From an uncultured Candidatus Saccharibacteria bacterium (GTDB taxonomy: Bacteria > Patescibacteriota > Minisyncoccia > UBA6257 > 1-14-0-10-44-23), in assembly GCA_964549935.1 (NCBI GenBank), contig CAZJVT010000003.1:159501-223500 (forward strand): 64,000 bases of DNA, given 5' to 3'. Positions 2,215 to 51,521 of this stretch are shown in pieces. The position numbers and the translations under genes are program-made. How positions within the stretch are numbered: the stretch's first letter is position 1; each line of letters starts with the position of its first letter. The notes beneath the pieces were generated by a model, which saw only the letters and a list, made by a program, of their open reading frames with translations, was not told the DNA's origin and did no database searches.

Positions 2215-2847
2215 ATGTCCACAGCGTTCGCCAGGGTCGTTTCCCTGGATGGCAAAGCCATCCCTTCCCCGTCGGCCCCGGGCCATGACGCCAATCAGCG
2301 CTCCAATATCCCGACCCCCCGTCCTCTCACCGGCCTTTGGAGCCGACCGAGCTTCCGTGCCGCCGGCGCCCGCATGATGAACCGCCTCATAGAGCTCAAG
2401 CTGCTTTCCGAGGCAGGCATGCGCGTCCTTTCGGGCATCCTCGACGAGCAGCCTGGACCGGTTTGTCTCGAGGCACTCGACCCGACCCTCTATTTCTCGA
2501 CCGTCGGGGCAGAGGATGCGGCGATCGAGATCCAGGAATGGGTCGGTCGCCTGATCGACGACAGCCGGACCGGTATCCAGGGGGCGCCGGAGGCCGAAGC
2601 CCATGTCTGGGCGGTGCGCCTGGGGCTTCTCCCGGCGGAAACCGGTCATCCGGAGATCGTCGAGGAGCCCGGCCAGACCATGGATCTGGCCCCCGGCACG
2701 ATCGGGCTTTCAGAGATCGACGCCGACGAGATCGCCCAGGAGATCATGCGCGGGGAGCCGCCGTCGGGCGGCACCCCTTCCCCGCTCCCGTCGTCGCTGG
2801 TTCGCCCCGGTATCCCGGACGCCAAGGTTTCCGAGGTGCCGTTCTAG
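2215..2847 (+). CDS. Hypothetical protein (210 aa), Pro/Gly-rich C-terminus
   Basis: ORF track. Competing minus ORF 2173..2649 is Arg-rich junk. Confidence 0.5.
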   Translation: MSTAFARVVSLDGKAIPSPSAPGHDANQRSNIPTPRPLTGLWSRPSFRAAGARMMNRLIELKLLSEAGMRVLSGILDEQPGPVCLEALDPTLYFSTVGAEDAAIEIQEWVGRLIDDSRTGIQGAPEAEAHVWAVRLGLLPAETGHPEIVEEPGQTMDLAPGTIGLSEIDADEIAQEIMRGEPPSGGTPSPLPSSLVRPGIPDAKVSEVPF

Positions 2848-2849
2848 GT

Positions 2850-3368
2850 CTAGCCGACCAATTTCGATTTCTCAGCTCGCGCCTTTCTTCTACGTTCGGC
2901 CTTCTCCTTGACCAGCTCCGCGACAATGTCGGAAGCATCCTTGCGCGAAGCCTGGTTCAGGAAGTGAAGCCCGGCTCGGATGATCTCGCTGTCGTCGACA
3001 TTGGTGCCGATCGTACTCATGAAGTCGACACGCAGACGGTGAATCAGCTGATCGTCACCGACGGTGATGACATAGGTGTTCCGCTTGACCTGGTTCTCTT
3101 CTTCCTTCTGCTGACGCCGCGAAAGAGGACGCTGCTCGACGGCGACAGAAGGCATGACTGGAGCGCTAGGCGGTGGCGGAGCGACGGGAGGCACCAGTGC
3201 GATAGGCGGAGCGGCGGCGGGTGCTAGAGGCGGCGTAGCAGGGCTCGGCTGAGCCTCAGGTGCGGGATCCACCTTTCCCGTCTTCGCGAATTGCTCGATT
3301 TCCTCAGGGCTCACTTTCTGCTTTATGAATGAGCGCGCCGCCGGTGGCATTGAACTTACATTGGTCAT
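2850..3368 (-). CDS. Putative partition centromere-binding protein (ParG/ParB-like partner of ParA). Has a Pro/Ala-rich linker and basic Lys/Arg C-terminus.
   Basis: Immediately downstream of parA with a 2-nt gap. Size and charge pattern are typical of small type Ib partition adaptors. No motif-level proof. Confidence 0.5.
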   Translation of the reverse strand: MTNVSSMPPAARSFIKQKVSPEEIEQFAKTGKVDPAPEAQPSPATPPLAPAAAPPIALVPPVAPPPPSAPVMPSVAVEQRPLSRRQQKEEENQVKRNTYVITVGDDQLIHRLRVDFMSTIGTNVDDSEIIRAGLHFLNQASRKDASDIVAELVKEKAERRRKARAEKSKLVG

Positions 3369-11617: not shown

Positions 11618-13151
11618 GCGAGGAGACCGTCACCACGCGCCTGGCGTCGATCGGCACGACCAGGCGGCCGTACCTGGCGATGCGGACGACGCCGGGCGTG
11701 CCGTCGTCGGCGTGCTCGCGGATGCGCGCGCTCACGCGCTCGAAATAGGGCTGCGAGAAGGTCGACGCCTCGACCAGGGCCTTCTCGACCTCGGCGCCAT
11801 AGGCGCTGTCGGGCTGGTCGGAGACGCGCCGGCCGATGGCGTCGAAGGCGAAGCTGGGGCCGTAGTAGTCGGGACCGCCGGGAACGAACTTGAAGGTGGC
11901 GCGACCGTCGTCGATGCCGACGACCCAGAGCCGGTGCGCCAGCCGCCGGTCGATGAGCTCGTTGAAGATGTGCTGGTTCAGGCCGCGGGAGAGGATGTTG
12001 AGCATGGGGCCCAACGGCTCCATCTCGCGCGCCGGAAGGTCGTCGAGGGCGATGCGCTGCGAGCGGTACAGCGGCACGCCGGAACCGGTCTTCTCGAGAT
12101 GGACGAGCTGCACGAGGCGCGCCGCGGCCGTGCTTCCGGTCGGCGCCGGCTCGGAGATCCAGCCTTCGCCCCAATGGATCCGAAGGCGGGCGGGGCCGGT
12201 CTGGCACGCGAGCCACGCGCGGGCATGGATGACGGCGCGCGAGATCGATCCGCGGGCCCGGGCCAGGACATCGATCCGGCCGGCGACGGGCTGGAAGACG
12301 ACGACGTCGAGGTTGCGTGCGAGATAGCGGGCGACGTCGCAGGTGGACTCGGGCGAGATCCCGTACTCGTCCAGCACCTGCTCGTTCAGCTCGCGGATGC
12401 CGTTCTCGTCGGCGATCATCGCCGTTCCCTCGACGAGGCTCCTGAACCGGCCCTGCGTCTCCTTCATCATCCCTTCGATGACGTCGAGCGCGGAGAGGGA
12501 GTTCGACGAGGTCGAGAGCACCGACCGGTCGAGGTCGACGATGCGGAAGTCGCGCCGGTCGGACATCATGGAGAGAAGCCAGTTGCGCAGCGTCCCGAGC
12601 CCGCCGGCGCTCACCGTGCTGGCCTTGAGCTCGACGGTGACGAGATCCCGGCCGAAGCCGACCGTCACCGGATGGGTCGAGGCCGTCCCGTCGATCCGTG
12701 CCCTGACATGCCCCTCGACGTCGATGACGAATCCGTCCTGGCGCCTGGGCTCGCACACGGCGCGGATGTGGTCGGCGAGATGGGCCGCGACCTCGTTGAC
12801 CTCGCCGTACCACATGCGCTTGACGACGCTGAAGGTCAGGTGCGGATGCGCGAGGTGCCGGGTCACGCGCAGGATCTGGCTCTTGACGTTCTCGCCGGCG
12901 CGCGGAACTCCGGCGAGCGCGCGAAGCCGCATCGAGATCTCGCTCCGGACAGCCTGGGCCCCGCTGTCGGGAGCCGATCCTGGGGTCCGCTTCATGGCGC
13001 GCGGCCGCTCCCGTCGGCGGTTGGGATCCGCGGCATCGCAAATTCCCTGAACCCAGCGAGGATCATCGCCCCAAGTTCTCCAGTCCATCCCGTCGGCCGG
13101 TAACTTTAGCGTTAGTCCTGCATTCAGAACAACCTGGAAGCGCTGGCTCAC
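11589..13151 (-). CDS. Hypothetical protein (up to 520 aa; alternative starts at 13088 or 12995)
   Basis: This frame has diverse residues (W, Y, F, H, N, Q). The two overlapping ORFs (11470..13041 - and 11712..13103 +) are Arg-rich or antisense-like. Confidence 0.55.
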   Translation of the reverse strand: MSQRFQVVLNAGLTLKLPADGMDWRTWGDDPRWVQGICDAADPNRRRERPRAMKRTPGSAPDSGAQAVRSEISMRLRALAGVPRAGENVKSQILRVTRHLAHPHLTFSVVKRMWYGEVNEVAAHLADHIRAVCEPRRQDGFVIDVEGHVRARIDGTASTHPVTVGFGRDLVTVELKASTVSAGGLGTLRNWLLSMMSDRRDFRIVDLDRSVLSTSSNSLSALDVIEGMMKETQGRFRSLVEGTAMIADENGIRELNEQVLDEYGISPESTCDVARYLARNLDVVVFQPVAGRIDVLARARGSISRAVIHARAWLACQTGPARLRIHWGEGWISEPAPTGSTAAARLVQLVHLEKTGSGVPLYRSQRIALDDLPAREMEPLGPMLNILSRGLNQHIFNELIDRRLAHRLWVVGIDDGRATFKFVPGGPDYYGPSFAFDAIGRRVSDQPDSAYGAEVEKALVEASTFSQPYFERVSARIREHADDGTPGVVRIARYGRLVVPIDARRVVTVSSLTPPPAFAA

Positions 13152-13782: not shown

Positions 13783-14562
13783 TCACCCCCGATAATCGTG
13801 CGGCCTCAGCCCCTCCGGCTTCCTCGCGATATCCTCGATCCCGATCTCCACCATCCCGGCCTTCCGCGCCCGCTCCTCGATCTCCCCGAGCTCGGCGCCC
13901 TCCTTGAGCCAGCCGACGCGGACGTCCTTCTCACCGAACCCGAGATCCTCGACCGCCTTCAGCCAGGCGGCATGGACCTCGCCATTGCCGGCGACGTGCT
14001 TCGCCTTCTCGGTGAAACCCCAGCACTTCACCGCGGGGAATCCCAGCAGGCTGTAGGTGCGGCGCTCCCTCAAGGGGCAGTTCCACATGTCGGAGCGCTG
14101 CAGCTTGATGCGGCCGGTCCTGTTCTCGACGAAGGCCCACAGCAGCTGGCGGTACTTCGTCGCCTTCTCGATGTGCTTCGGGCTCCGGAAGTCGCAGTAG
14201 GTCGTCTTCGGCACCAGCATGATCCACGTCGCCTCGGGCTTCGCCCCCAGAGCCGCCGAGACGCCCTCGATCGCCTCGTCGGCCGTCGCGTCGACCCATT
14301 CGTCGCCGCCATCCGCGGTCTCGAGGCGACGGAGCCGGCTGCGGGCCTTGACCTCGATCGCCGCGAAGACGCTGTCGTCGCTTCCGGACTTGGGCGCATC
14401 CACATGCCAGAGCGCGACCAGATCGATGCCGCGCGGTGAGTAGCATTGCGAGATCTTGAAGCGGTCGGTGCGATTGCGATCGCGGCCGATCTTGATGCCG
14501 CGATCGAAGCCGGCGTCCTTGAAGGCGTAGATCCAGCCGGAGCTGGGGGCGTGAGCTGTCAT
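13783..14562 (-). CDS. GIY-YIG-like / T5orf172-type domain protein (N-terminal GWIYAF ... KIGRDRNRTDR)
   Basis: Motif GxIYxF ... KIGRxxN characteristic of the T5orf172/GIY-YIG-like family. Start taken at MTAHAPS (ATG 14562) to avoid 5' overlap with the HNH gene. Confidence 0.55.
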   Translation of the reverse strand: MTAHAPSSGWIYAFKDAGFDRGIKIGRDRNRTDRFKISQCYSPRGIDLVALWHVDAPKSGSDDSVFAAIEVKARSRLRRLETADGGDEWVDATADEAIEGVSAALGAKPEATWIMLVPKTTYCDFRSPKHIEKATKYRQLLWAFVENRTGRIKLQRSDMWNCPLRERRTYSLLGFPAVKCWGFTEKAKHVAGNGEVHAAWLKAVEDLGFGEKDVRVGWLKEGAELGEIEERARKAGMVEIGIEDIARKPEGLRPHDYRG

Positions 14563-14681: not shown

Positions 14682-15092
14682 ATGCCGGATGCGACGGCGA
14701 CGCCCGATCGCGATCTGCCTGACCCCATGTCCGCCTGCTGCCTCTGCGGCCTCGACATCCCCTGCCTCGTCGAGGGCGCCCATGTCCCTGACCGCGCGAC
14801 GGCGCCCGACGACATCGCCCGCCTCTGCCTCCTCTGCCACCGGGCCTACGATCTCGGCCTGATGACCGACGACGAGATCCGCGCCGCGCGCAGCGCCTGC
14901 GACGCCGGCGGCCAGGCGCCGTTCGCCGGCAGGGCCGAGGATCTCCATGCGCTGTGGCGCGGGCGCGATCCCGACTGGTCGCGGCTGCAAAAGGGCGCGC
15001 AGGCGAGGGCAGGGAAGACGATCAGGCGGCGGTCGGCGGCCAGGCGCGCGGCGAGGACGCGATCGGCGAACCGGTCGCCGGCCACGGATTAG
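14682..15092 (+). CDS. HNH endonuclease-family protein (CxxC ... H ... N ... LCxxCH)
   Basis: MSACCLCGLDIPCLVEGAHVPD ... LCLLCHRAYD; start uncertain (GTG 14658 / ATG 14682 / ATG 14724). Confidence 0.6.
   Translation: MPDATATPDRDLPDPMSACCLCGLDIPCLVEGAHVPDRATAPDDIARLCLLCHRAYDLGLMTDDEIRAARSACDAGGQAPFAGRAEDLHALWRGRDPDWSRLQKGAQARAGKTIRRRSAARRAARTRSANRSPATD
14944..15017. repeat. Direct repeat copy A: TCCATGCGCTGTGGCGCGGGCGCGATCCC ... AAGGGCGCGCAGGCGAGGGCAGGGAA, inside the 3' end of the HNH gene
   Basis: Near-identical copy at 19400-19456 (copy B lacks 17 nt). Confidence 0.8.
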
Positions 15093-15552: not shown

Positions 15553-16266
15553 ATGTGCGGCCGCTTCTCCAACCGTCTCACCTGGCAAGAGATCCACGAC
15601 CTCTACGCCATCCACGACGACTTCCCGGCGCCGAACCTCCAGCCGCGCTCGAACATCTCGCCGACCCAGGCCGCGCTCGTCGTCCGCCGCGACGCCGACA
15701 CCGGCCGGCGCACCGCCGCCTTCCTCCGCTGGGGGCTGGTGCCCTTCTGGGCCAAGTCCCCGAAGGACGTGAAGATGACCACCATCAACGCGCGCGGCGA
15801 GACCATCGCCTCCAAGCCCGCCTATCGCGAGGCGGTGCGGAAGCGGCGCGCGATCGTGCCGGCCTGCGGCTGGTACGAGTGGACCGGGGAACCTGGCTCT
15901 AAACAACCTTGGCGCTTCGTCCGCACCGACGGCGATCCGCTGAGCCTGGCCGCGGTGTGGGAGCGGTGGTCGCCGAAGCCGGGCGTGCCGGAGGCGGAGG
16001 GGCTGGACCCGGTCGAGAGCTTTGCGATCGCGACGACCGCGGCCTCGCCTGATACAGCCCAGATTCACGATCGCATGCCGGTGGTGCTGGAAAAGCAGGA
16101 CCTCGATCTCTGGCTCGATCCGGATCCGAAGCAACTCGAGCGCCAGTTGGCGCTGATCCGGCCGGCGCCGGCGAAGTCGATCCGGTACTTCCCGGTGTCG
16201 ACGAAGGTCAGCAGCTCAAGGAACGAGGGGCCTGAGCTGGTGGAGGAGATCAGGCTCGAGGCGTGA
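15553..16266 (+). CDS. yedK: SOS response-associated peptidase (SRAP/YedK/HMCES family), abasic-site DNA-protein crosslink enzyme
   Basis: Begins MCGRFS with catalytic Cys2. The SRAP domain spans the whole protein (LRWGLVPFWAK, PACGWYEW). The upstream 200 aa of ORF 14947..16266 is Arg-rich readthrough, not coding. Confidence 0.9.
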   Translation: MCGRFSNRLTWQEIHDLYAIHDDFPAPNLQPRSNISPTQAALVVRRDADTGRRTAAFLRWGLVPFWAKSPKDVKMTTINARGETIASKPAYREAVRKRRAIVPACGWYEWTGEPGSKQPWRFVRTDGDPLSLAAVWERWSPKPGVPEAEGLDPVESFAIATTAASPDTAQIHDRMPVVLEKQDLDLWLDPDPKQLERQLALIRPAPAKSIRYFPVSTKVSSSRNEGPELVEEIRLEA

Positions 16267-17459: not shown

Positions 17460-17643
17460 GGGTTATGGTCAATTATGATATCGTCAATAATTTATTGAAT
17501 ACAAACATAATTGTCAATAGAGCACCCAGTCGAGAGAGCCGGAAGATCGTCTTCGACTAAGGCCGCTACGCCGCGGTAAGCGCCTTCATCGACCTGGGCT
17601 CCGACCTGACATTCAATCGGACATTTTCAAGTTCGACATCCTC

Positions 17644-18945
17644 CTAAACCGGCGCCCGGTTGAAGCCCGGGTAGACGAACGCGCCGCGGATCCGCTCGCA
17701 ATCCTGTTCGGACATCCCCTCGGCCCTGGCGAGCTGGTACCACTCGGATGCCACGAGCCGCTGCATCTCGTCGACGATGCGCTCGGCCTCCGCAGGCTCG
17801 AGCGTGAAGCGCCGGCACTGGCTCACCAGGTTCGTCGCATTCGCGATGCGGCCGAGATCGCCGATCTCCATGGCGAGATCGCGCCGGTCGAGCGAGACCG
17901 GCATCGAGGGCGTCAGGTCGTAGGCAGGCGAAATCTGCCACGTCCCGTCCCAGGCGATCACGGCATGGTTGCGCGGATGATCGTCGATGTTGGAGATGAG
18001 CGCATTGAAGCACATCCGTCGGAACAGCTCCTTCGCGTCGGCCGCGGACGTGGCCGAGATGCGGCGGAGCTCCTCGGCCAGAAGCACGTATGACCAGAGA
18101 TGCCGGTCCAGGGGGCCTTCATCGGCCCTGAGCAGGGTGAAGGCGCTCACCATGCGCGCACGGCGCCAGCCTTCGCCCTCGCGCTGGCGATCGAACCGCT
18201 TCACCAGCAGGGCATCGCGGCCGCCGACGTCGACGATGCGGCTGTCGGCGACCGTGATGCCGGCCAGCCGCGCGAGAGCGAGCATCGTCCTTTCCGCGCG
18301 GGCATTGTTGAAGCGATCGTCCGGTCGGTTGAACTTGGCGATCCAGAGCGCTCCATCGTCTTCCACGACTGCCTTCGGCCTGGCACCGCCCATCGAGGTG
18401 CCCAGCAGCAGGAGATCGCCGATCTGCGGCGCGGCGTCGGCCGATGACGCAGGAATGTCCTCGTCGGCGACGACCGCATCGGCTGCGGCCTGCAGCGCTG
18501 CGAGGTCGATCGTCCGGTTGAAGCGGGTCCGCGGAGCAGGAGGCTCGACGTTCCGTCCGAAGCCGAGGGCGCCGGCACGATCGTCGGGCGATTGCAGGAG
18601 ATAGTCGAGCTCGGAGGGCTGGGCGATCCCGGAATGCTTCTCGATCACCCGTCGGCCCCAGTAGTCGGGGCTCGCGTCCCGGATCGCGCCGAACACGCCC
18701 TTGAGCCTGACCGTATCGTAAGCCGTCGCCGCGAGCTTCAGCTCGACGGGATCGAGTTCGACGGCGTCCGGGCGCGCCAGATAGCTCCGTCCGTACACGA
18801 ACCGTCCGCGCGGGATGCCGAGCCCGTCGACCTCGAGGCGGTAGCGAGCGGCCGTTACGCTCGAGGTGGCGCCGGGGAGCGTGATGTAGACGAAGCACTC
18901 GTCGGCGGCGCGGCCAGCTCTGGAGGCCCCGGTCCTAGAAGTCAT
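17644..18945 (-). CDS. hipA: HipA-family Ser/Thr kinase toxin
   Basis: GGARPK P-loop-like motif and catalytic IDDHPRNHA motif. Confidence 0.85.
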   Translation of the reverse strand: MTSRTGASRAGRAADECFVYITLPGATSSVTAARYRLEVDGLGIPRGRFVYGRSYLARPDAVELDPVELKLAATAYDTVRLKGVFGAIRDASPDYWGRRVIEKHSGIAQPSELDYLLQSPDDRAGALGFGRNVEPPAPRTRFNRTIDLAALQAAADAVVADEDIPASSADAAPQIGDLLLLGTSMGGARPKAVVEDDGALWIAKFNRPDDRFNNARAERTMLALARLAGITVADSRIVDVGGRDALLVKRFDRQREGEGWRRARMVSAFTLLRADEGPLDRHLWSYVLLAEELRRISATSAADAKELFRRMCFNALISNIDDHPRNHAVIAWDGTWQISPAYDLTPSMPVSLDRRDLAMEIGDLGRIANATNLVSQCRRFTLEPAEAERIVDEMQRLVASEWYQLARAEGMSEQDCERIRGAFVYPGFNRAPV

Positions 18946-19273
18946 TGCTCATTCCCGAAGAGCGGGCGCGCTTGCGCGTGCGGCCGAGCTCGAGCGCCAT
19001 GCCTTCCTTGTCGAGGTCGGGGGCGGCGACCTCGGCCAGCTGCTGCGAGAGTCCGTAGGCCCAGAGCAGCGCTGCATAGACCGCAATGCCGGTCGAGGGC
19101 TTCCCGTCCTCGGCGTCTGCGATCACGAAGCGGCTGGTCCCGATCTTCTCCGCGACGACTTCCTGGCTAAGCCCGCGGCGGAGCCTGGCCGTGCGCAGGC
19201 TGGCGCCGAGGGTCTTCAGCGTGCGCTCGACCTCGAAGGGCGGGGCGGCAAGGAGCTGGTTGCGGGCGGACAT
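18935..19273 (-). CDS. hipB: HipB-like XRE-family HTH antitoxin
   Basis: HTH LSQEVVAEKIGTSRFVIADAE; overlaps hipA1 start by 11 nt. Confidence 0.8.
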   Translation of the reverse strand: MSARNQLLAAPPFEVERTLKTLGASLRTARLRRGLSQEVVAEKIGTSRFVIADAEDGKPSTGIAVYAALLWAYGLSQQLAEVAAPDLDKEGMALELGRTRKRARSSGMSNDF

Positions 19274-19399
19274 GGTCCGAATATAGGGGGCGGGTACGGA
19301 AATGTCACGATAAGACGTTAGTTCAAGACAACATAAGTGGATTTATTGAGATCTTGAAATAACAAATCTAAAGCCGAACCGGTGCAGCCAGCGGACATT

Positions 19400-19456
19400 T
19401 CCATGCGCTGTGGCGCGGGCGCGATCCCATAAGGGCGCGCAGGCGAGGGGAGGGAA
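19400..19456 (+). pseudogene. Remnant of HNH gene 3' end (direct repeat copy B); reading frame destroyed after HALWRGRDP
   Basis: Sequence identity to 14944-15017. Confidence 0.45.
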
Positions 19457-19508: not shown

Positions 19509-20945
19509 TCACGACGGGAGCCGCCAGCCGCCGGGCTTGTCCTCGAAGCCGAGCACGTCGACCTCGATGCCGAAGCCGAAGGCGTCGTTGAGCAGCTCCA
19601 CCTGGCGTCCGATCGCCGACATGACCCTCAAGGCGACGGGGCCGTATTTCGGCTTGGCGCTTCGCACCTTCTCGGCGACGCCGAGGATCATGGCCGCCGC
19701 CACCCGGAGCCGGCCGAGGATGACGGAGGGGCGGATCCCCATCCGGTTTGCGGCGCGCTCGATCGCCTGCATGTCCAGGTCCTCGAAGCCCTGGTCGTCC
19801 TGGCCCTCCTCGGCGCCGAAGGTGAGCGCCATGCGCTGGCGGTACTGCGGGTAGAGCGCGATCGAAAGCACGTCGTAGAGCGGCGCCAGTCCGGCACGGA
19901 ACGCCCGCCCGTGCAGGAGCGCGTAGTTCTTGGCGTGCGCATCGGCATTGGCGACGAGGAAGTTGAAGATCATCGCGTCCAGCAGGTTGATGCGGAAGAG
20001 CGCGAAGGCGTCGACCTTCTCGAGGGCGAGGAGGTCATCGGCCCGCGGTCCGCCGCGATGGGTGTACTTGCGATCGGACGTGAAGCCGAGCGCCTGGCAG
20101 AAATCCTCCTGGTGGACGCGCCTGACGATGCAGGGACCGGAGATGCCGGCCGCGGCGGGCATGATCGCCCCACGGGGGGATCGTGCAGGCAGGAGACCTT
20201 CGATCTCGCGATCGTATCGAGGCACGACGAGGACCTCGCGGCCCGGCGCGAGCTCGACGATCCGCGGCTCGACGGCATCGAGGCCCATCGCCCGGGCGAG
20301 GTCCAGGCAGAAGGATTCGTTCGCGACCATGCCGGCGAAGGCGGGATCGGGAAGCTTGGCGATATGCGTCGAGGGCGCGCCGCCGCGGGCGCGATGGAAG
20401 CGGCCGTCGGCATCCATGACCACGGCGGCCTTGCCCTGGACGCCCGCGAGCGAGAACTCCTGCCCCTCGCCGGCGGCTCTCGTCCGGTCGATGCCTTTCT
20501 CCATCTGGTCGAGGAGATCGGCGGGGTCGAGGACGTCGTAGTCTTGAGGGAATTCGCCCGGCGTCTTCGCCGGATGCTCTCCGGCGGGCACGATCGAGAC
20601 GGCTCCCGGGCAGTCGCGGCCGACATGCTCGAGGATGCCCATGAGGTCGCGCTCGTCGAGTCCGAGCTGGAGCGCCAGGACCGACAGCCGCTTTCCTTCG
20701 GGCAGGAGGTTCTCGAAGAAGGGGAGGACGTCGCGCGGCCCGTAGACGCGGTTCTGCACCGGCAGCGAGATCGAGAGCGCGGCGCGCGGATAGCTGCCTA
20801 CATAGGCCGGGTCGTAGGCGAAGGTGGTCTCGAGGCCGGTATGCACGAGCCGGCCGGCGACGCCGGTCTGCCCGTCGAGGAAGACGTCGAGGGCGAGCTT
20901 CCGGTCGGACGAGGCTATGGCCTTGCCGGGCAGGCCGCCGGTCAT
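19509..20945 (-). CDS. hipA: HipA-family kinase toxin, second copy (478 aa)
   Basis: FSLAGVQGKA and LVANADAHAKNYAL motifs. Confidence 0.85.
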   Translation of the reverse strand: MTGGLPGKAIASSDRKLALDVFLDGQTGVAGRLVHTGLETTFAYDPAYVGSYPRAALSISLPVQNRVYGPRDVLPFFENLLPEGKRLSVLALQLGLDERDLMGILEHVGRDCPGAVSIVPAGEHPAKTPGEFPQDYDVLDPADLLDQMEKGIDRTRAAGEGQEFSLAGVQGKAAVVMDADGRFHRARGGAPSTHIAKLPDPAFAGMVANESFCLDLARAMGLDAVEPRIVELAPGREVLVVPRYDREIEGLLPARSPRGAIMPAAAGISGPCIVRRVHQEDFCQALGFTSDRKYTHRGGPRADDLLALEKVDAFALFRINLLDAMIFNFLVANADAHAKNYALLHGRAFRAGLAPLYDVLSIALYPQYRQRMALTFGAEEGQDDQGFEDLDMQAIERAANRMGIRPSVILGRLRVAAAMILGVAEKVRSAKPKYGPVALRVMSAIGRQVELLNDAFGFGIEVDVLGFEDKPGGWRLPS

Positions 20946-21289
20946 GACGCGCGTCCTCTCAGAGAGCTGCGGGCGCTTCGGAAGGCGCCGGCCGGCTTGC
21001 CGACGCGATGGCGCCGGCGGACGCCGGCATCGGGCTCGGCGAGGATCTCGTCCGCTTTCCGCAGCGTCTCCTCGGTGACGTCGAAGCGGAGCCGGATCCC
21101 GAGCGCGGCCAGGACATGGATGGCCTTGCCCAGGGCCGCCGTCGGCTTGCCTGCCTCCAGCTCGACCAGGAATCGCGTCCCGACATCGGCGAGGCCCGCG
21201 AGCTCGTGCTGGGCGAGGCCCTGGCGGAGCCGCTCCGCGGCAATCAGGGCGCCGATGGCGCGGGGAGATTGGAGACTGAAATCGGGCAT
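20942..21289 (-). CDS. hipB: HipB-like XRE HTH antitoxin, second copy
   Basis: HTH LAQHELAGLADVGTRFLVELE; ATGA overlap with hipA2. Confidence 0.8.
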   Translation of the reverse strand: MPDFSLQSPRAIGALIAAERLRQGLAQHELAGLADVGTRFLVELEAGKPTAALGKAIHVLAALGIRLRFDVTEETLRKADEILAEPDAGVRRRHRVGKPAGAFRSARSSLRGRAS

Positions 21290-21295
21290 GATGAA

Positions 21296-21449
21296 TTCCC
21301 GAGCGGGAATATATGATCGAGTTACATCGACGTCAATGGTGATAAGTTCCCGCTTGGGATTTTATCAAAGAGGAGTGATGGATTGGAGGGTATAAAATAC
21401 CGAGCGGGAATATATAAGGTGATTATGGTCAATTATCCCGCTGACCATA
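21296..21449. promoter_or_regulatory. Candidate hipB2A2 operator/promoter region. IR TTCCCG-AG-CGGGAA at 21296-21309. A 15-bp exact direct repeat CGAGCGGGAATATAT at 21300-21314 and 21401-21415. IR TCCCGCTTGGGA at 21348-21359. IR TTATGGTCA-N9-TGACCATAA at 21423-21449.
   Basis: Read directly; AT-rich relative to surroundings. Confidence 0.45.
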
Positions 21450-21479
21450 ATTTATCCCGCGGACCATGATGCGCCCCAT

Positions 21480-21941
21480 CTAGAACGACCGGATGGAGCG
21501 GGTGACGACCCCCCAGATCTCGAACCTACGCTCTTCGGTGATCTCGATGTCGGCATAATGCGGGTTCTCGGCGCGGAGGATCAGGCGACCGCCGGATCTC
21601 ACCAGGCGCTTGAGAACGAACTCCCCGTCGAGCACGGCGATGCAGATCGCCCCGTTCACGGGCCGCCTTGCCCGGTTGACCACGACGAGATCTCCATCGA
21701 ACAGGCCAGCTCCCTCCATGCTGTCGCCCTTGATGCGCGCGACGAAGGTCGCGGCGGCGTCCTCGATCAGGAGCTCGTTGAAGTCGATCGGCGCCGCGGT
21801 GAAGTCCTCTGCCGGGGACGGGAACCCGGCTGGAGCCGGAACCAGGAGGAGGGGGATCGCGGCAGGTCTCGAAGCGACGCATGGCGAGAACCCAGCTGAC
21901 GCCAAGTCGCCGATATGCGATTCGGGGATATTGTTCAGCAT
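21480..21941 (-). CDS. umuD: UmuD-like S24 LexA-type autopeptidase (error-prone polymerase accessory subunit); no umuC adjacent
   Basis: GDSMEG (Ser nucleophile) and VLKRL (Lys) motifs. Start MLNNIPE at rc 21939-21941. Confidence 0.8.
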   Translation of the reverse strand: MLNNIPESHIGDLASAGFSPCVASRPAAIPLLLVPAPAGFPSPAEDFTAAPIDFNELLIEDAAATFVARIKGDSMEGAGLFDGDLVVVNRARRPVNGAICIAVLDGEFVLKRLVRSGGRLILRAENPHYADIEITEERRFEIWGVVTRSIRSF

Positions 21942-21947
21942 TTGTTC
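21933..21947. promoter_or_regulatory. Alphaproteobacterial-type LexA box GTTCagcatttGTTC overlapping the umuD start codon
   Basis: Perfect GTTC-N7-GTTC direct repeat read directly. Confidence 0.6.
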
Positions 21948-22046
21948 CGATGATAGGGTGACGGCGCGTCCCTTCGTCAAGCTGCTTTCCGGCGCGTTTC
22001 GGCGCGCGGAACGCGATCGCAGGCAGAGACACGCGAGGAGAGCCCT

Positions 22047-22730
22047 GTGACCGTCCTGGCGCGGCCCGATTTCAGGATCCTGCCGAACGGATACCTGCGC
22101 GACCTCGTCGCGCGACACCGCCGGGAACGCGCCGGCTACGTGGCCGTCGATCTCTACGAGGTCGTCTATGACGTGCCGGTTCTAGGATGGGCGGCGACTC
22201 GCGATGCGGCGCTCCTGGCCGCGCTCGAGCTCCGGCCCGATCGCCGCAATGTCGGTGTCTTCGCCTGCCGGCCCGAGCTCAAGGCGCAGATAGAGGCCGC
22301 GGGCTATGACTTCCAGACGACGAGCATCATGGCGCAGATCGCCGACGGCATCGCCTACGACGTTTCGGAGCTTTACCCGCCGCATGCCGCGCTCGAGTGG
22401 GCGGGCGACGTGGCGTCGTCGAACCGGCGCCTCGAAACGGGCGAAACGGACTGGCCAGCCATGCGGGACCTGCTTGTCCGCATGGGGCTCGCGCACCTCA
22501 GGGGCAGCATGATGGTCGACCTTGCGGAAAGCGGAATGATCGGGTGGACGGAAGAGGCGCCACTTCGGGGGATGGGCATTGCCAGCGCAGGCGGCCTGGC
22601 CCCCTTGTCCTCGCTACTCTTGCAGGCCGAGCGCGAGACGGCAGCAAACCTGAACGCATGGGAAATCGAGACGCAGGTCGGCAATTTTCTCGATGGTCGG
22701 GCCGAGAGCGCCTGGCTCAGGCGCGCCTGA
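22047..22730 (+). CDS. Hypothetical protein (227 aa), divergent from umuD and sharing the LexA-box intergenic region
   Basis: ORF track (GTG start). Confidence 0.5.
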   Translation: MTVLARPDFRILPNGYLRDLVARHRRERAGYVAVDLYEVVYDVPVLGWAATRDAALLAALELRPDRRNVGVFACRPELKAQIEAAGYDFQTTSIMAQIADGIAYDVSELYPPHAALEWAGDVASSNRRLETGETDWPAMRDLLVRMGLAHLRGSMMVDLAESGMIGWTEEAPLRGMGIASAGGLAPLSSLLLQAERETAANLNAWEIETQVGNFLDGRAESAWLRRA

Positions 22731-42134: not shown

Positions 42135-45062
42135 TCATCGCGCCATGCTGAGCTGAAGCCCGCCGATCGCAGCGTCCAGGTCGTCGGTATTAGCCGGCAT
42201 GGGAAGGTGGCCGGGCGGGGCCTTGACGCCCGCCATGATCTGGCTCATGGGCGGGATCTGCGGGATGTCGGCAAGGCGTCCGGCTTGCTGCAGGCTCGCC
42301 TTCAGCTGCTCGTGGTTCTGCCTCAGCCGCGCGGGGAGCTGGGTGCAGCGGAGGTCGGCATCGATCCGGCTGACCGCGATCTTGAGCGCGCGCATCGAGC
42401 CGACGACGTAGCAGCGCTGCTTGCCCCGGCTGATGCCGGTGCGAAGGATCGTCCGCTGCAGCAGCGGGTAGTGGCAGGTGTGGAGGGGGATGATGCAGAC
42501 CGGATACTCGGCGCCCTGGCTCTTGTGCAGGCTGATGGCGTTGGCCTGCTCGAGCATCGAGAGGTCCTTCTTGCGATAGCGGACCAGGCCCGAGTCGCCG
42601 TAGTCGACCTCCAGGCCGTATGCGACTTCCTGCCCCATCCCGTTGGGGCTGGTGAAGACGCGGGTGATGAGCCCGACCTCGCCGTTGGCGACGATGCGAT
42701 CCTGCTCGATCTCGAAGCCGTCGAGCATCTCGTAGGCGACCTGCTCGTCCGCGGTGAGCCGCCGGCTCTGGTTCAGTTTTTCGCGGATGCCGGAAAGCAG
42801 CTTCTGGACTTCGCTGTGGTACTTCCAGTTCTCGACGTGGATGACCTTGTCCTGGCGGGAAAAGGTGAGACCTTCGCGCTTGTCGTCGCAGATGTAGGAA
42901 TGGACCGCGTTCAGGTTGATCGGATTGAGGATCTCCTTCAGCGAGATGTTCATCTGGTCGACGCCGATCTTGTTGGCGTAGCCCGGCGACAGGACCTGGA
43001 TGTCCTGCATGGGGTCGTATCCGAGCTGCGGCAGGTCGCGGCTGACCAGGTCGACGACGGCGTCGTGGATCTGCTCCGGATCGTTGATCTCGATGAAGTT
43101 GAACTCGAAGCCGGTTGAGTCCTCGATGCGGCCGATCTGGCGCCCGGGCACCTTGCCTTCGTCGATGGCCTCGACGGCGATCGGAATGCCGGAGCCCTTC
43201 TTCTGGCGATGGATCTTGGTGAGGTGGGCGATGGGAACCGTCCTCGAGTCGATCAGGTCGGCAAGGATCCGTCCTGCACCGACCGAGGGGATCTGCTTGT
43301 GGTCGCCGACGATGATGAGGCGCGTCCGCCGGAAATCGATGGCGCGCAGGGTCGAGAGGAACAGCTTGGCGGCATAGAGGCTCGCCTCGTCGATCACGAC
43401 GACGTCGACGTCCAGCGGATTGTTCTGGTTGTAGGTGAAGCCGCCGCTGCGGCTGAGGTCGTCGTCGGCGTCGCCGAGAGAGCTCGGAACCGCCGCGCTG
43501 CGGTCGCTGTCGGCCTGCGTATAGGGCGTCCAGGCAAGGCCGCGATGGGCAGTGAAGGCAGGAAGGCCGATGCTCTGCGTCATTCGCTTGGCTGCGTTCG
43601 CGGTCGGGGAGATCGGCAGGACCATGGTCCGGCCGGTCTCCGCCAGGGCCTTGATGACCAGGTTGAGGATGGTCGTCTTGCCTCGGCCGGGGCCGCCGGT
43701 GAGGACGGAGACGCGGCTGTTGAGGATGGTGCGCAGCGCCTCGGTCTGGCTCTCGTCCGGGATGAACCCGTCGGCGATCGCCTCGGTCAGGACCTTGCGG
43801 AGACCCTTCCCGATGGCATCGACGTACTGGGCTCGATCGTCGAGGGCGCCTTCGGCCTCGAACATGCCGGCGATCAGCCTCTGGGCGATCTCCTTCTCCA
43901 TCTCGAGCGACGCGTGGGTCCGGACGAGCTTCGGCTCGACCTCGCCCGAGTAGGCGAGGCGGCCGGACTTGACCAGGTCGATCATGCGGGTCTTAACGGA
44001 CTGGCCGTCGAGATCGAGGATCTTCGTGGCGTTCACGATCAGCTGGTGCGCCGGCAGGCCGCAATGCCCCTCCGTCTCCGCTTCGTACAGGGCATGCTTG
44101 ATGCCGGCGGTGATGCGACCCTCGTGGCTGGGATCGATCTTCATGCGCTTGCCGATGTCGTCGGCCTTGAGGAAGCCGATGCCCTGGATCTCGAAGGCGA
44201 GGGCCCAGGGATCGCTCTCGACCTGGTGGCGGCTCTTCGCGCCGTAGCGCTCGACGATCTTGTCGATGGTGCGGGCACCGAGGCCGAGGCCGGAAAGAAA
44301 CATCCGGACATTCTGGAGAGGGTTGTCGAGGTTCCTGGTGTAGCTCTCGACGATGGCGCGGGCTTGCCGCTCGCCGATGCCGGCGCGGACGAGCTCTACC
44401 GGATCCTTCAGGGCCTCGGGCAGCCGATCTCCGAAATAGGCGAAGAGCTTCTCCGCCGTTGCCGGACCGGTACCGGGGACGCCTCCGTTCGAGCCCCGTG
44501 ACAGCCACTTGACCACGCCTTCGACGCCGATCGGCGGAAGGATGCTGATGTCGGCCGCCTTCCAGCGACGGCCCCACTTGGGGTCGTCGTTCTCCTTGAG
44601 GTTGGCGGCCTGGTAACGATCGCCGGCGCCGACCGGCTGGTCGTCGCCCTTCTTCAGGAAGGCGGTGATGGTCTTGACCTGCCCGTCGCGGTTCCGGCCT
44701 TCGAACAGAAGCCAGCCGGAGTCGATGTTGCGCTTGATGACCCGGATGACCTCGCCATCCTCGAGATTGGACGGGGTTCGGGACCGGCGGCGCTCGGTCG
44801 ATTCCAGCCGCTGACCGTCCCCGGCTTCGCCGGCGCGGCCGGCGGCAGCGAGGCCGTCGTCGGCTCCGGCGCCAGAACCCTCCGTACCGTTGGCTGCAAG
44901 CCGGGCGAAACCACCGCGGCGAACCTGCGCCGCCGCCCCGGCCTGCTCGCCCTGGGCGGCGACCGTCTCGGAAACCTGGTCGGCGACGTCGTCGGTAACG
45001 TCGCGAGGTTCCTCGACCATCAACCTGCGGAAACCACGGCCTTCGCTGGCGGCGCTTGGCAT
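42135..45062 (-). CDS. RecD2-like SF1B DNA helicase (975 aa) with extended low-complexity N-terminus and SH3/OB-like N-domain
   Basis: Walker A GGPGRGKTT, DEAS box VVVIDEASLY, motif VI AISLHKSQGAEYP. Confidence 0.85.
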   Translation of the reverse strand: MPSAASEGRGFRRLMVEEPRDVTDDVADQVSETVAAQGEQAGAAAQVRRGGFARLAANGTEGSGAGADDGLAAAGRAGEAGDGQRLESTERRRSRTPSNLEDGEVIRVIKRNIDSGWLLFEGRNRDGQVKTITAFLKKGDDQPVGAGDRYQAANLKENDDPKWGRRWKAADISILPPIGVEGVVKWLSRGSNGGVPGTGPATAEKLFAYFGDRLPEALKDPVELVRAGIGERQARAIVESYTRNLDNPLQNVRMFLSGLGLGARTIDKIVERYGAKSRHQVESDPWALAFEIQGIGFLKADDIGKRMKIDPSHEGRITAGIKHALYEAETEGHCGLPAHQLIVNATKILDLDGQSVKTRMIDLVKSGRLAYSGEVEPKLVRTHASLEMEKEIAQRLIAGMFEAEGALDDRAQYVDAIGKGLRKVLTEAIADGFIPDESQTEALRTILNSRVSVLTGGPGRGKTTILNLVIKALAETGRTMVLPISPTANAAKRMTQSIGLPAFTAHRGLAWTPYTQADSDRSAAVPSSLGDADDDLSRSGGFTYNQNNPLDVDVVVIDEASLYAAKLFLSTLRAIDFRRTRLIIVGDHKQIPSVGAGRILADLIDSRTVPIAHLTKIHRQKKGSGIPIAVEAIDEGKVPGRQIGRIEDSTGFEFNFIEINDPEQIHDAVVDLVSRDLPQLGYDPMQDIQVLSPGYANKIGVDQMNISLKEILNPINLNAVHSYICDDKREGLTFSRQDKVIHVENWKYHSEVQKLLSGIREKLNQSRRLTADEQVAYEMLDGFEIEQDRIVANGEVGLITRVFTSPNGMGQEVAYGLEVDYGDSGLVRYRKKDLSMLEQANAISLHKSQGAEYPVCIIPLHTCHYPLLQRTILRTGISRGKQRCYVVGSMRALKIAVSRIDADLRCTQLPARLRQNHEQLKASLQQAGRLADIPQIPPMSQIMAGVKAPPGHLPMPANTDDLDAAIGGLQLSMAR

Positions 45063-46054: not shown

Positions 46055-46434
46055 TGTGGATGAAGCCGACGACCGTGCGAAGGGCAATGGGACGACCGAC
46101 GCCGAATGTCCACCTCTCGATCGACTACGACGAAGACCCGAAGCGGCCGTCCTATCGGTCGGTGGTCGTCAGGGGTCCTGGCAGATTCGAAAGCCGCTAT
46201 GCCTCGAATGATCCGGTGACGGACTTCAGGAAGGGCCTGGTCCTCGCCCGGCGGAAGGCCCGGGTGGGCCGCTGCCGCCTGCTCGCCAGCTCGAGCCTCA
46301 CCCATTTCGTCTTCGACGTGCCGGGCTACCGGTTCGTCGGGCATCCCGTCTTCGGCGAGTTGCTCGCCAGGGACCCACGCGACGGACGGCGTCGCTTCAA
46401 GCCACGGAAAGGTCCATCCCATCATGAGCGCTGA
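46054..46434 (+). CDS. Small basic hypothetical protein (126 aa)
   Basis: ATG overlaps the upstream TGA (TGATG). Reading frame is the tail of ORF 45331..46434. Confidence 0.4.
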   Translation: MWMKPTTVRRAMGRPTPNVHLSIDYDEDPKRPSYRSVVVRGPGRFESRYASNDPVTDFRKGLVLARRKARVGRCRLLASSSLTHFVFDVPGYRFVGHPVFGELLARDPRDGRRRFKPRKGPSHHER

Positions 46435-47578
46435 GACGTCCCCGGCCGCGGCCCCGAAGCAGGCTTCGCTCTATTTCACCGATGGTCGGTCCGACAAGGA
46501 GTACCACGCGAAGCTCGAGACGTCGGGCGGCGGCTGGGTGGTGAACTTCGCCTATGGACGGCGAGGCGCGTCGCTGACCACCGGAACCAAGACGTCATCC
46601 CCCGTCTCCTACGAAAAGGCCCTCAAGGTCTTCGACGGCCTGGTGAAGGAAAAGACGGCGAAGGGCTATGTTCCCGATGAGGCCGGCCGGCCGTTCTCGG
46701 TCGGAGATGCGTCCGGACGGAAGTCCGATTTTCTGCCCCAGCTCTCGAATCCCATCGACATCGAGGGGCATGCCCTCGACGCGGTGATCGACGGCATGAT
46801 CGCATCCGACGAATGGTACGCCCAGCAGAAGCACGACGGCGTCCGGATGGCCATCGAGATCTTCGATGACGGCGCCCGCGGCATCAACCGCCGGGGGCTG
46901 TTCGTTGACCTCCCTCCGGCCGTCGCCGCGGCCTATGCGCTCCATCCGGTCGGCACGCTCGTCGACGGCGAGCTGGTCGGCGACGTCCATCATGCGTTCG
47001 ACGTCGTCAGGATCGGTGCCCGCTCCCTGATGGACCTGCCTTTCAGGAATCGCATCGTCGAGCTCGATCGGGCCCTGCGCCAGCATTCTGTCGACGACGC
47101 CGGCGCCGTCCGCTTCGTGCCCGCGATGTCCAGCTTCGCCGAGAAGCGCGAACTCCGCCGAAACGTCGAGGGGAGCAATGGCGAGGGTCTCGTCTTCAAG
47201 CGGGCCAGCGCGGTCTACCGACCCGGCCGGCCCGCGCGCGGCGGCGACTCGATCAAGCTCAAGTTCTGGGAGAGCGCGACCGTCCGCGTCGCCGGCGTCA
47301 ATGCCGGCAAGCGCTCCGTCTCCATGGAGATGCTCGACGGCAAGGGCTGGTCGACGGTCGGGAACGTAACTGTTCCGAGCAACCAGGAGATCCCGGCCGA
47401 AGGATCGTTGATCGAGGTCCGGTATCTCTACGCCATGCTGCCGAGCAAGGCGCTGTTCCAGCCCGTCCTCCTCGGATCTCGCGCGGACATGGAGCTCGCC
47501 GACTGCAGCGTCTCGCAGCTGAAGTTCAAGGCCGAGCCCGAGATCGCCTCCACATCCCTCGGTCCTTCCATGGGCTGA
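46424..47578 (+). CDS. ATP-dependent DNA ligase with N-terminal WGR domain
   Basis: WGR signature KEYHAKLETSGGGWVVNFAYGRRG. Ligase motif I QQKHDGVR (KxDG). OB-fold C-terminus. Confidence 0.85.
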   Translation: MSAETSPAAAPKQASLYFTDGRSDKEYHAKLETSGGGWVVNFAYGRRGASLTTGTKTSSPVSYEKALKVFDGLVKEKTAKGYVPDEAGRPFSVGDASGRKSDFLPQLSNPIDIEGHALDAVIDGMIASDEWYAQQKHDGVRMAIEIFDDGARGINRRGLFVDLPPAVAAAYALHPVGTLVDGELVGDVHHAFDVVRIGARSLMDLPFRNRIVELDRALRQHSVDDAGAVRFVPAMSSFAEKRELRRNVEGSNGEGLVFKRASAVYRPGRPARGGDSIKLKFWESATVRVAGVNAGKRSVSMEMLDGKGWSTVGNVTVPSNQEIPAEGSLIEVRYLYAMLPSKALFQPVLLGSRADMELADCSVSQLKFKAEPEIASTSLGPSMG

Positions 47579-47860: not shown

Positions 47861-48573
47861 GCTTTAAGCTGCCTGCGAAGCCTGACGCTGGGCATCGTCG
47901 CCTGCGTCAGCTTCCAGCCACTACCGCGGCGCTCGAAGAAGAGGGTGTCCTGACGCGATCCGGGTCCCTCGAATTCCGGGAACACCCGGGCATTGAACAA
48001 TTCCTCCGCCCAGCGCGGGGCCAGGCCGGAAGGCCAGTCGGGAATCGACTGAATGAGGCAGCAGCAGCCGGCCGCATCCTCGGTCACCCGCGCGTCATGG
48101 ATCTGGGTCAGCTTGCGGCCGACCGACTGGAAGATGCCCGTTTCCGCATCGTAGCTGAGGCCATGACCGTTGAGCGAGACCGTGATCGAGCCGTCGAAGG
48201 AGGCCGCCGACGTCTTCAGGAGCCCGGCGTCGACGAGGGCACGGAGCTTCACCACTTGCTGGGGACCTAGGTCGCCCAGGCCGGACATCTTGATCTTCAG
48301 GGGAAACCTGATCGGTTTTCCCATCGCGAGGGACAGCCGGATCTCCTTGAGCTCGCCGGCGGCTGCCAGCCGGACCGCATCGAGCTCGTCGCCCGCCACC
48401 GGCCGGCCTGCGGGAAGTCCTTCGAGGGTTCCGGATTTCTCATCTTCGGCGTTCGCGATCGCGCCGGCCCCCGACCTTGCGACGACCGGCGCGACCAGTG
48501 CGACCGATCCCACGATGCCGAGGGCGGAAAGCATGACCGATCTGCGGGTGAGCATCGTCATGTGGCGCCTCAT
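47857..48573 (-). CDS. Periplasmic hypothetical protein with Tat-like signal (MRRHMTMLTRRSVMLSALGIVGSVALVA); contains CCC motif
   Basis: ATGA overlap with recJ stop. Confidence 0.5.
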   Translation of the reverse strand: MRRHMTMLTRRSVMLSALGIVGSVALVAPVVARSGAGAIANAEDEKSGTLEGLPAGRPVAGDELDAVRLAAAGELKEIRLSLAMGKPIRFPLKIKMSGLGDLGPQQVVKLRALVDAGLLKTSAASFDGSITVSLNGHGLSYDAETGIFQSVGRKLTQIHDARVTEDAAGCCCLIQSIPDWPSGLAPRWAEELFNARVFPEFEGPGSRQDTLFFERRGSGWKLTQATMPSVRLRRQLKA

Positions 48574-50609: not shown

Positions 50610-50870
50610 TCATTCTCTCGGCAGCTTGGGAAGCCTGCCTTCGGCCTCGGCGGGGACGGTCGATTGAACGACGACGTATCGGGCTCCGATGCGCCGCCTG
50701 GCGGTCGCGCGCCTGAGCAGCCGGGAGCGGACGATGCCGATGGCCCCGGTTTCGTCCGGAGACGACAGCCTGACGGTTCTATTCCATCCGCCTATGCGGC
50801 CATAGGTAAGGTCGATCGTATGGTGGCCGAACAGGTCCGGGGCAACCTCGACATTGTACCGGCGGGCCAT
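50610..50870 (-). CDS. Standalone WGR-domain protein (86 aa)
   Basis: HTIDLTYGRIGGWNRT WGR signature. Inner ATG verified at rc 50868-50870. Upstream part of ORF 50610..51434 looks non-coding. Confidence 0.6.
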   Translation of the reverse strand: MARRYNVEVAPDLFGHHTIDLTYGRIGGWNRTVRLSSPDETGAIGIVRSRLLRRATARRRIGARYVVVQSTVPAEAEGRLPKLPRE

Positions 50871-51029
50871 GTTTCGCTCGGTGTCGACGGCTTTCAGATC
50901 GATCGCGATGTCCAAGCCTGGCCTCCGTGAGAACAAACGGAGAATACCATGAGGATTCCAGGTCTCGCCAGAGTCCCCTCTATATGCAGGGTGCAAAAGA
51001 CCGTCTATATTGGTCCACCGCACAGAACG

Positions 51030-51521
51030 ATGGCGCATCCGGGGCGCCTCTTGATCTCGAACCAGACAAGATCCCTCGCAGAGCTCTTCGAGACCGTCCA
51101 CCGTCATATCTACGGCTGGGACGTCCGAGAGGGCTTGACCTGGTTCCAGTGGAGCTGCCTCCGGTACTTCGATCGCGTTGCGCCGGAGCAGCGCTCGATC
51201 GCGGGCTATCACAATGCCTTCCAGGTCGCGAGCTCCACGGCATCGCGAATGGTCAACGGACTGGCCAGCAAGGGCTATCTCAAGCTGACTCGCCCAAGCG
51301 GACCGAGGTCCTCCAAGGTCGAGCTGACCGCCCGCGGTCGTGACAAGCTGAAGAAAGATCCCCTGATCCCGCTGGGCAAGGAAATCGACAAGCTGCCGGA
51401 AACCCAGCGCAACGCGATACGCGCGGGGCTGCATACGCTGCTCAAGGCAGCGGTCCTGCTCGATGCGGGACTGGATATCGACGAGACCGCAATCGGGAAG
51501 AAGACCCGCGGCCGGAGATGA
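51030..51521 (+). CDS. MarR-family transcriptional regulator
   Basis: wHTH IAGYHNAFQVASSTASRMVNGLASKGYLKL. Confidence 0.75.
   Translation: MAHPGRLLISNQTRSLAELFETVHRHIYGWDVREGLTWFQWSCLRYFDRVAPEQRSIAGYHNAFQVASSTASRMVNGLASKGYLKLTRPSGPRSSKVELTARGRDKLKKDPLIPLGKEIDKLPETQRNAIRAGLHTLLKAAVLLDAGLDIDETAIGKKTRGRR

Follow-up and report, generated by a model that had tools for sequence, protein, structure and literature searches.

The 64,000-nucleotide stretch of DNA analyzed here (the window) contains a gene for UmuD, the self-cleaving protease subunit of DNA polymerase V (Pol V), that is not followed by umuC. It stands back-to-back with a gene for a 227-residue protein of a very rare family, its start codon is overlapped by a direct-repeat LexA box, and the position that umuC occupies in its closest relatives is taken by a hipBA toxin-antitoxin (TA) module with its own control region (Table 1). 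With good confidence, we interpret the locus as what is left, namely the left half, of a umuD-umuC (Pol V) operon under LexA repression, one of a family carried by alphaproteobacterial mobile-element islands, in which umuC has been replaced by hipBA. The event would be mostly a routine one, accessory-gene turnover on a mobile element having halved an SOS-regulated umuDC operon, and it carries a caution, namely that an orphan umuD with repair genes nearby should not be taken for a designed toolkit.

The product of the umuD gene matches Pfam PF00717 (Peptidase_S24) with an E value of 1.4e-27 (96.1 bits; cutoff 23.3) and passes NCBIfam NF007621, the model for the translesion error-prone DNA polymerase V autoproteolytic subunit, at 140.6 bits (cutoff 110). 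The PDB entry closest in sequence is 8gmt, E. coli UmuD (E 1.2e-20); the best LexA reaches 1.1e-13. When the two UmuD proteins are aligned, Ala38-Gly39 of the window protein falls on the Cys24-Gly25 cleavage site of the E. coli protein, while the serine of a GDSM motif and the lysine of a VLKRL motif correspond to Ser60 and Lys97, respectively. The C-terminus (…SIRSF) is complete and matches that of the orthologs, the frame contains neither frameshifts nor stops, and the catalytic residues are all kept. On the strength of the family score, the alignment of the cleavage and catalytic residues and the complete C-terminus, the gene can be assigned as a bona fide, intact umuD, whose product is predicted to cleave itself at Ala38-Gly39 via the Ser/Lys dyad to give UmuD’. 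The 38-residue arm that precedes the cleavage site is poorly conserved among relatives. A search of genome contigs, a set that does not include the genome of the window itself, returned a top match of 58% identity, and the nearest UmuD relatives belong to Alphaproteobacteria, including Reyranella, Hyphomicrobiaceae, Pseudorhodoplanes and Terrihabitans. A longer, GTG-started open reading frame (ORF) at 21480-22118 (212 residues) was considered as the true umuD and dropped, as it would overlap the divergent gene and its extra residues are the translated conserved promoter.

The preliminary description of this DNA had reported a GTTC-N7-GTTC motif over the umuD start, within a 105-bp divergent region shared with the partner gene, and both observations hold: the region extends to the GTG of the partner gene, and the match is exact, reading GTTCAGCATTTGTTC on the plus strand and GAACAAATGCTGAAC in the direction of umuD, and the umuD ATG (21941-21939) sits within its spacer. 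The box begins two bases after the TATCAT -10-like hexamer of a promoter-like element that the consensus scan, with a spacer limit of 18 nt, did not list. Because this hexamer ends only 8 nt ahead of the ATG and umuD has no Shine-Dalgarno sequence, the umuD mRNA probably has little or no leader, and LexA on the box would lie over the transcription start. The number of boxes carries no weight of its own, as it is at chance level (two exact GAAC-N7-GAAC matches in the window versus 1.36 expected, with two or more in 40 of 100 shuffles); the weight comes from conservation. In oriented upstream regions the exact motif is found at the umuD promoter of all eight loci compared, which comprise the window, its closest orthologs (L005, L007, L009 and L011) and three much more distant loci (L093, L095 and L097), against a background of 0.025 matches per kb in 1.3 Mb of related loci. 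The relatives share a common layout, with a TTGAC or TTGC -35-like element, a TATCA(T/C) -10-like element, two bases and then the box, and this two-base register after TATCA[T/C] holds in 7/7 loci in which it was checked. The promoter element is kept in the four closest orthologs, and the three distant loci show TTGC(G/A)-..-TATCA(C/A). Within the box the GAAC tetrads are invariant and the spacers vary (AAATGCT, AAATGAC, ATATGAA, AAAGACG, ATAACGG and GAAATGA). Exact boxes also lie 5’ of umuD in further alphaproteobacterial or Rhodospirillales loci (L019, L048, L061, L064 and L076), and none was found upstream of umuD in the beta-proteobacterial and Bacteroidota relatives covered by the scan of related loci, lineages that use other SOS boxes. 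In Caulobacter crescentus the SOS box is GTTCN7GTTC (PMC9578287, Table 1). These comparisons identify the motif as a genuine, conserved SOS box of the alphaproteobacterial type that appears to be placed to repress umuD, and they make the locus a clean phylogenetic footprint of such a box over a probably leaderless start codon.

A umuD-family gene that diverges from a lineage-restricted partner across a damage operator is also found in Acinetobacter, where the pair encodes UmuDAb and DdrR (PMC4807011; PMC11332147), and the preliminary description had suggested that UmuD might act as a LexA-like regulator. By analogy, UmuD would repress the shared promoter and the divergent gene would encode a DdrR-like co-factor. 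According to these reports, Acinetobacter lacks LexA, UmuDAb stands in for it, and A. baylyi ADP1 has a truncated umuC (PMC4807011; PMC11332147), so that the superficial likeness extends to a umuD homolog, a divergent partner, a shared operator and a damaged umuC. We nevertheless consider this reading extremely unlikely. UmuDAb has 203 residues, an extra 59-residue helix-turn-helix-like N-terminal domain that is needed for repression, and a cleavage site at Ala83-Gly84 (PMC4807011), whereas the window protein, at 153 residues, has only 38 residues before its predicted site, in an arm that is not conserved among orthologs, and no such extra domain. It fails the LexA equivalog TIGR00498 (64.9 bits; cutoff 110.95), to which only its C-terminal domain aligns, and the operator is the standard LexA box of the Alphaproteobacteria, a group that possesses LexA, instead of the large palindromic UmuDAb site. 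Since UmuD lacks a DNA-binding N-terminal domain, a LexA- or UmuDAb-like role is unlikely and the resemblance is architectural only; the partner matches no described family in the libraries searched, and no direct comparison with DdrR was made. There is no lexA in the window, and because UmuD is its sole S24 protein, the SOS repressor must be encoded by the host. As a separate observation, the next-closest alphaproteobacterial loci (L013, L014, L016-L018 and L022) encode a longer UmuD subclass of 185-198 residues with a conserved N-terminal extension (…VVRLP.…A.LAR…) at the place where the window has its non-coding promoter; this subclass might bind DNA.

That the locus is one half of a umuDC operon becomes apparent downstream of umuD. 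A tblastn search of the whole window with four UmuC orthologs returned nothing at E <= 10 and no Y-family polymerase is encoded in the 64 kb, which bears out the earlier remark that neither umuC nor dinB adjoins umuD. In all four of the closest ortholog clusters (P0002, P0003, P0006 and P0007; 66-75% identity, eight contigs), a umuC gene with IMS, IMS_C and DUF4113 domains overlaps or abuts the umuD stop. Among 80 genome loci with UmuD relatives, umuC lies immediately downstream of umuD in 63 and just upstream in 6, one contig ends too soon, and about 10 have no umuC within 10 kb; umuC adjoins umuD in each of the eight closest of these loci (L013-L020), of which seven are alphaproteobacterial. 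The umuC genes of the orthologs begin ATGCGGCGC or GTGCCCCGC, and the window, following the TAG of umuD, reads ATGGGGCGC and then diverges wholly, leaving about 9 nt of umuC. The end points of the junction alignment and of blastn agree that homology to the orthologs runs past the umuD stop and ends at 21471-21480. An assembly chimera was considered as the source of the umuD-hipB junction and ruled out, since the junction recurs in four contigs (L001-L004) that come from different runs and were assembled independently, and so must be real. Because the close orthologs all carry umuC and the window keeps only its first few nucleotides, the orphan state is derived, by a recent deletion or replacement of umuC, and not a designed feature.

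The surrounding sequence indicates how umuC was lost. Beyond the cargo downstream of umuD the backbone resumes, with window positions 13793-14549 being 84% identical to L005 17562-18318 and positions 12277-12970 matching L009, and the cargo between these shared segments differs from element to element, which marks the region as a variable cargo slot. We conclude from these alignments that an exchange of cargo in the lineage of the window took umuC along. L011 (positions 2221-3064) provides a second, independent case in mirror image, in which the 5’ half of the partner gene has given way to an MqsA-like antitoxin gene, leaving its C-terminal 109 residues (119-227) and an intact umuDC; TA cargo therefore erodes the umuDC-partner module repeatedly. 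The comparison as a whole points firmly to an ancestral module in which a gene of about 225 codons and umuD-umuC diverged from a shared promoter region with one GAAC-N7-GAAC box, and to a replacement of cargo that removed umuC from about 9 nt past its start codon and put in its place hipBA together with the AT-rich region that contains the hipBA operators and promoter. The module so reconstructed resembles known umuDC operons, including the mobile mucAB, impCAB and rumAB/rulAB, in its S24 subunit with an Ala/Cys-Gly cleavage site and Ser/Lys dyad and in the box over its promoter, and it resembles the mobile ones in lying on an island among TA and other accessory genes. Homologues of umuDC commonly border accessory islands in the leading regions of plasmids (PMC11541004). 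The window locus differs from the known operons in that umuC is down to about 9 nt and the UmuD arm has 38 residues versus 24, and from E. coli umuDC in that its box is the alphaproteobacterial direct repeat, whereas the E. coli box is a palindrome.

Table 1. Features of the umuD locus, its downstream cargo and other DNA-processing genes of the window.
Feature	Position	Strand	Description
umuD	21480-21941	-	153 aa, S24 self-cleaving protease subunit of Pol V; Pfam PF00717 and NCBIfam NF007621
SOS (LexA) box GAACAAATGCTGAAC	21933-21947	-	alphaproteobacterial-type direct repeat; covers umuD ATG and probable transcription start
umuD promoter-like element	21950-21980	-	TTGACG 21980-21975, 19-nt spacer, TATCAT 21955-21950
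umuC 5’-end remnant	21471-21479	-	ATGGGGCGC directly after umuD stop
Divergent intergenic region, umuD/227-aa gene	21942-22046	.	105 bp
Divergent partner gene	22047-22730	+	227 aa, GTG start; very rare uncharacterised family
AT-rich hipBA control region in place of umuC	21290-21470	-	52-56% GC, three palindromic units, promoter
hipB	20942-21289	-	HTH_3
hipA	19509-20945	-	HipA_C E 3.8e-42, Couple_hipA E 1.3e-21
Second hipB-like	18935-19273	-	Pfam
Second hipA-like	17644-18945	-	Pfam
SRAP	15553-16266		Pfam
RecD2-like helicase	42135-45062		Pfam
WGR + ATP-dependent ligase	46424-47578		Pfam
RecJ	48570-50480		Pfam
RNase_T/DnaQ-like exonuclease	58579-59496		Pfam

A umuD gene that has recently lost umuC may be a non-functional leftover that awaits disabling mutations; all that mattered would then be the promoter with its box and perhaps the partner gene. 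We regard this as a serious possibility, though short of an even one. It is suggested by a breakpoint only 9 nt into umuC, by the retention of umuC in every close relative, by the erosion of the L011 module on its other side by TA cargo, and by the origin of all copies of the arrangement in one related sample set, which fits a recent event. It is at odds with a gene that has no frameshifts, stops or lost catalytic residues and whose evolution is not accelerated. The pairwise dN/dS of the window umuD against its orthologs is 0.21-0.23, as compared to 0.30-0.43 among umuC-bearing orthologs; its UmuD core is 71% identical to that of the outgroup P0007, where orthologs that keep umuC score 68-73%; and its branch is no longer than theirs. 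By these measures the orphan umuD appears free of decay, but the measures average over the history that preceded the loss and therefore cannot separate a recent relic from a gene that is still useful.

The same intact frame, cleavage site and dyad, and the same unraised rate and dN/dS relative to umuC-keeping orthologs, would be expected if UmuD were kept to serve a UmuC, or another Y-family polymerase, whose gene lies elsewhere on the chromosome, the replicon or a co-resident element. There is precedent for such an arrangement, as phages and plasmid-prophages carry orphan UmuD-like genes (P1 HumD, N15 gp26 and others), each a umuD homolog standing alone on a mobile replicon, and at least one of them is functional: P1 HumD acts with host UmuC in SOS mutagenesis, as stated in a title cited in PMC11541004. 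Among the 80 related genome loci, about 10 likewise have no umuC next to umuD. Even so, we think a functional orphan of this kind somewhat unlikely. A UmuC partner was not found in the 64-kb window, the signal of selection lacks the resolution to date the loss, and the loss itself looks like collateral damage of the exchange of cargo. The parallel with HumD is also imperfect, as HumD resembles processed UmuD’ and is an orphan by long-standing design, whereas the window UmuD is full length with a cleavable arm rather than pre-truncated, falls below the cutoff of the HumD equivalog NF051876 (61.9 bits; cutoff 120), and owes its state to a visible recent deletion.

The sequence that took the place of umuC is compositionally distinct, the GC content falling to 52-56% at 21150-21600 versus 66% overall. 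Three palindromic units of 24 nt (core TTCCCGAGCGGGAA) lie within 21291-21415 at a spacing of 50-51 bp and overlap a hipB promoter (TTGACG-17-TATATT, 21336..21308). They are probably HipB operators, and their sequence differs from that of the E. coli HipB sites, TATCC-N8-GGATA. The module is recognizable as hipBA from the HipA domains of its toxin, from an HTH_3 antitoxin gene that ends 4 nt into hipA, and from these palindromic operators upstream. Both hipBA modules and the gene that follows them are co-directional with umuD. A 33-nt direct repeat (17463-17495 and 21423-21455) brackets a block of about 4 kb that contains both modules, and a 14-mer within it, TTATGGTCAATTAT (17463 and 21423), occurs exactly twice in the window versus 0.01 times expected; the repeat may be a scar of recombination or insertion, or a shared operator. 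Separately, a segment of about 76 nt at 14941-15016, the 3’ part of an ORF for a Cys-rich, HNH-like protein of 136 residues (14682-15092), recurs with about 85% identity at 19397-19456 in the spacer between the first hipA and the second hipB, a similarity suggesting that the cargo is a mosaic put together by recombination between related cassettes.

The preliminary description named the gene on the other side of the box but missed that it represents a very rare family with a specific link to umuDC. It is a real gene, as judged by its conserved start (MTVL(S/A)RPDF), a good Shine-Dalgarno sequence (GAGGAGAG) and a dN/dS of 0.16-0.27. A word search of 5.8 billion proteins returned four homologs, and a full hidden Markov model (HMM) scan of 1.84 billion representatives returned nine matches. 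Seven members stand divergently upstream of umuD(C) across the box (P0121-P0124, P0125 in L093, P0128 in L095 and P0130 in L097), P0129 is a tandem paralog behind P0130, and a further paralog, P0131, lies at a distance of 4.7 kb within the L005 island; the weakest match, P0132 (E 6e-4), is the only one located elsewhere. The distant members are about 30% identical to the window protein and their UmuDs 57-63% identical to the window UmuD, so the pairing has been kept over considerable divergence. Nothing related to the partner was found in Pfam, NCBIfam, PHROGs, PADLOC or the PDB sequences, in plasmids by tblastn, or in viral contigs; metagenome scans with a protein pattern of the family and with a DNA pattern of the promoter box were both empty, and a PDB profile search gave only spurious matches to designed armadillo repeats. 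An AlphaFold model built from four sequences was unusable (pLDDT 32.7). The partner is absent from all 80 genome loci that have UmuD relatives and is therefore a rare, element-specific companion rather than a general Pol V factor. The locus in this way reveals a tiny unannotated family whose members are found almost exclusively back-to-back with umuDC across the box, an arrangement that differs from impCAB, where impC is small and runs in the same direction as its neighbors.

The preliminary description had proposed that umuD and the divergent gene are both SOS-regulated. For umuD this is well supported by the conservation of its box in all eight loci; for the partner, co-repression by LexA is geometrically plausible, the distance from the box to the partner start being 67-105 bp in all but one of seven loci, the exception being L009 with about 180 bp. 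An imperfect palindrome, CGCGTTCCG-N5-CGAAACGCG, lies at about 21986-22008, in the half of the intergenic region nearer the partner, and could be a second operator or a structure in the 5’-untranslated region of the partner mRNA. In L009 (~2040-2190) this palindrome is amplified to three tandem copies of about 40 bp that end in GCGAGAGG.

The partner may be an unrecognized, SOS-co-regulated accessory or regulator of UmuD or Pol V on alphaproteobacterial mobile elements that persists with UmuD in the umuC-minus state, a proposal that we consider unlikely but consequential: if it modulates Pol V or UmuD, it would add a new component to a mutagenesis pathway that has been studied very intensively, and the umuC-minus pair would imply either an activity independent of UmuC or a rewired SOS promoter that feeds the hipBA persistence module. 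Taken further, UmuD and the 227-residue protein would work as a separate SOS-induced unit, for instance a regulator or a checkpoint with RecA, the replisome or DinB as its target. The survival of the pair after the loss of umuC would then be explained, and the idea is consistent with purifying selection on both genes and with a family that occurs almost only beside umuD(C), divergent across the box, down to about 30% identity. E. coli UmuD is known to have UmuC-independent interactions with DinB, the beta clamp and the Pol III alpha subunit. We judge such a unit decidedly improbable, as umuC is present with every other family member, making the linkage one to umuDC as a whole rather than to umuD by itself; L011 has an intact umuDC beside a truncated partner, so the operon can do without the partner; and neither structure (pLDDT 33) nor homology hints at a role for the partner. 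In a variant of this idea, which we grade no higher, the SOS promoter would now also drive hipBA by read-through and render the toxin module inducible by damage. Such read-through is conceivable, as the genes are co-directional and no canonical terminator was found between umuD and hipB. SOS-controlled TA modules are also known, among them higBA of Caulobacter (PMC13384398); E. coli tisB and dinJ-yafQ are further examples. The window resembles them in having a TA module that immediately follows a LexA-controlled promoter and shares its direction. Against this, the hipBA of the window has its own promoter and three palindromic operators, which leaves read-through a possibility only, and an AU-rich 11-bp hairpin without a U-tract, formed by the repeat copy at 21423, lies directly 3’ of the umuD stop.

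In the reading that we favor, a umuDC operon shorn of umuC, host LexA would bind the box, which follows the -10 hexamer and covers the start codon, and would thereby block RNA polymerase. Upon DNA damage, activated RecA (RecA*) would trigger LexA cleavage, umuD would be transcribed, probably as a leaderless message, and the divergent gene would probably be transcribed too. RecA* would also promote self-cleavage of UmuD at Ala38-Gly39, and the resulting UmuD’ would aid translesion synthesis only with UmuC supplied in trans from the chromosome or another element, as in the case of P1 HumD; failing that, umuD would be a recently orphaned gene that is still undecayed. Several points weigh against this reading or parts of it. 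The low dN/dS dates mostly from before the loss of umuC and is no proof of present function, and the 64 kb cover only part of a contig of at least 224 kb, so that umuC could lie elsewhere on the replicon or on the chromosome. A 19-nt spacer between the -35 and -10 elements is long for a sigma-70 promoter. The partner promoter was not located, and for this reason its co-regulation is deduced from geometry. Finally, we infer an alphaproteobacterial host from the type of box, the GC content of 66% and the nearest UmuD relatives.

SRAP, DnaQ-like, RecJ, ligase and helicase genes are present in the window, as the preliminary description had noted and Pfam searches verified, but its further proposal that they make up an SOS, mutagenesis or repair toolkit finds no support. 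Upstream of the SRAP, RecJ, ligase and RecD2-helicase genes, a search that allowed one mismatch found no box, and the sole match near the DnaQ-like gene has one mismatch, is 175 bp upstream and falls within another coding sequence. The search for additional boxes that the description had called for did yield one other exact match in the window, at 55791-55805, in a total that is at chance level. This box overlaps the start codon (ATGAACGCTGTCAGAAC) of a plus-strand ORF (55789-56103, 104 residues) that has a strong GGGAGGAGG Shine-Dalgarno sequence and no NCBIfam match. It is without the GAACA extension common to the boxes of umuD promoters and may be a chance occurrence, one such match being expected. 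With the repair genes lacking boxes and the one other exact box at chance level, the sequence does not support a coordinated SOS regulon on the replicon.

A megablast search of positions 19-25 kb of the window against plasmids gave no match. WGR domains occur in two proteins that flank RecJ, the ligase fusion and the product of 50610-51434, and these genes adjoin the RecD2-like helicase and a Toprim topoisomerase in a compact DNA-processing cluster that has no SOS box. Along with that topoisomerase, the window encodes ParA, a tyrosine integrase, a pilus cluster with a secretin and a type II secretion system (T2SS) ATPase, an LPD7 domain and several TA modules, and overall it looks like a mobile replicon or island.

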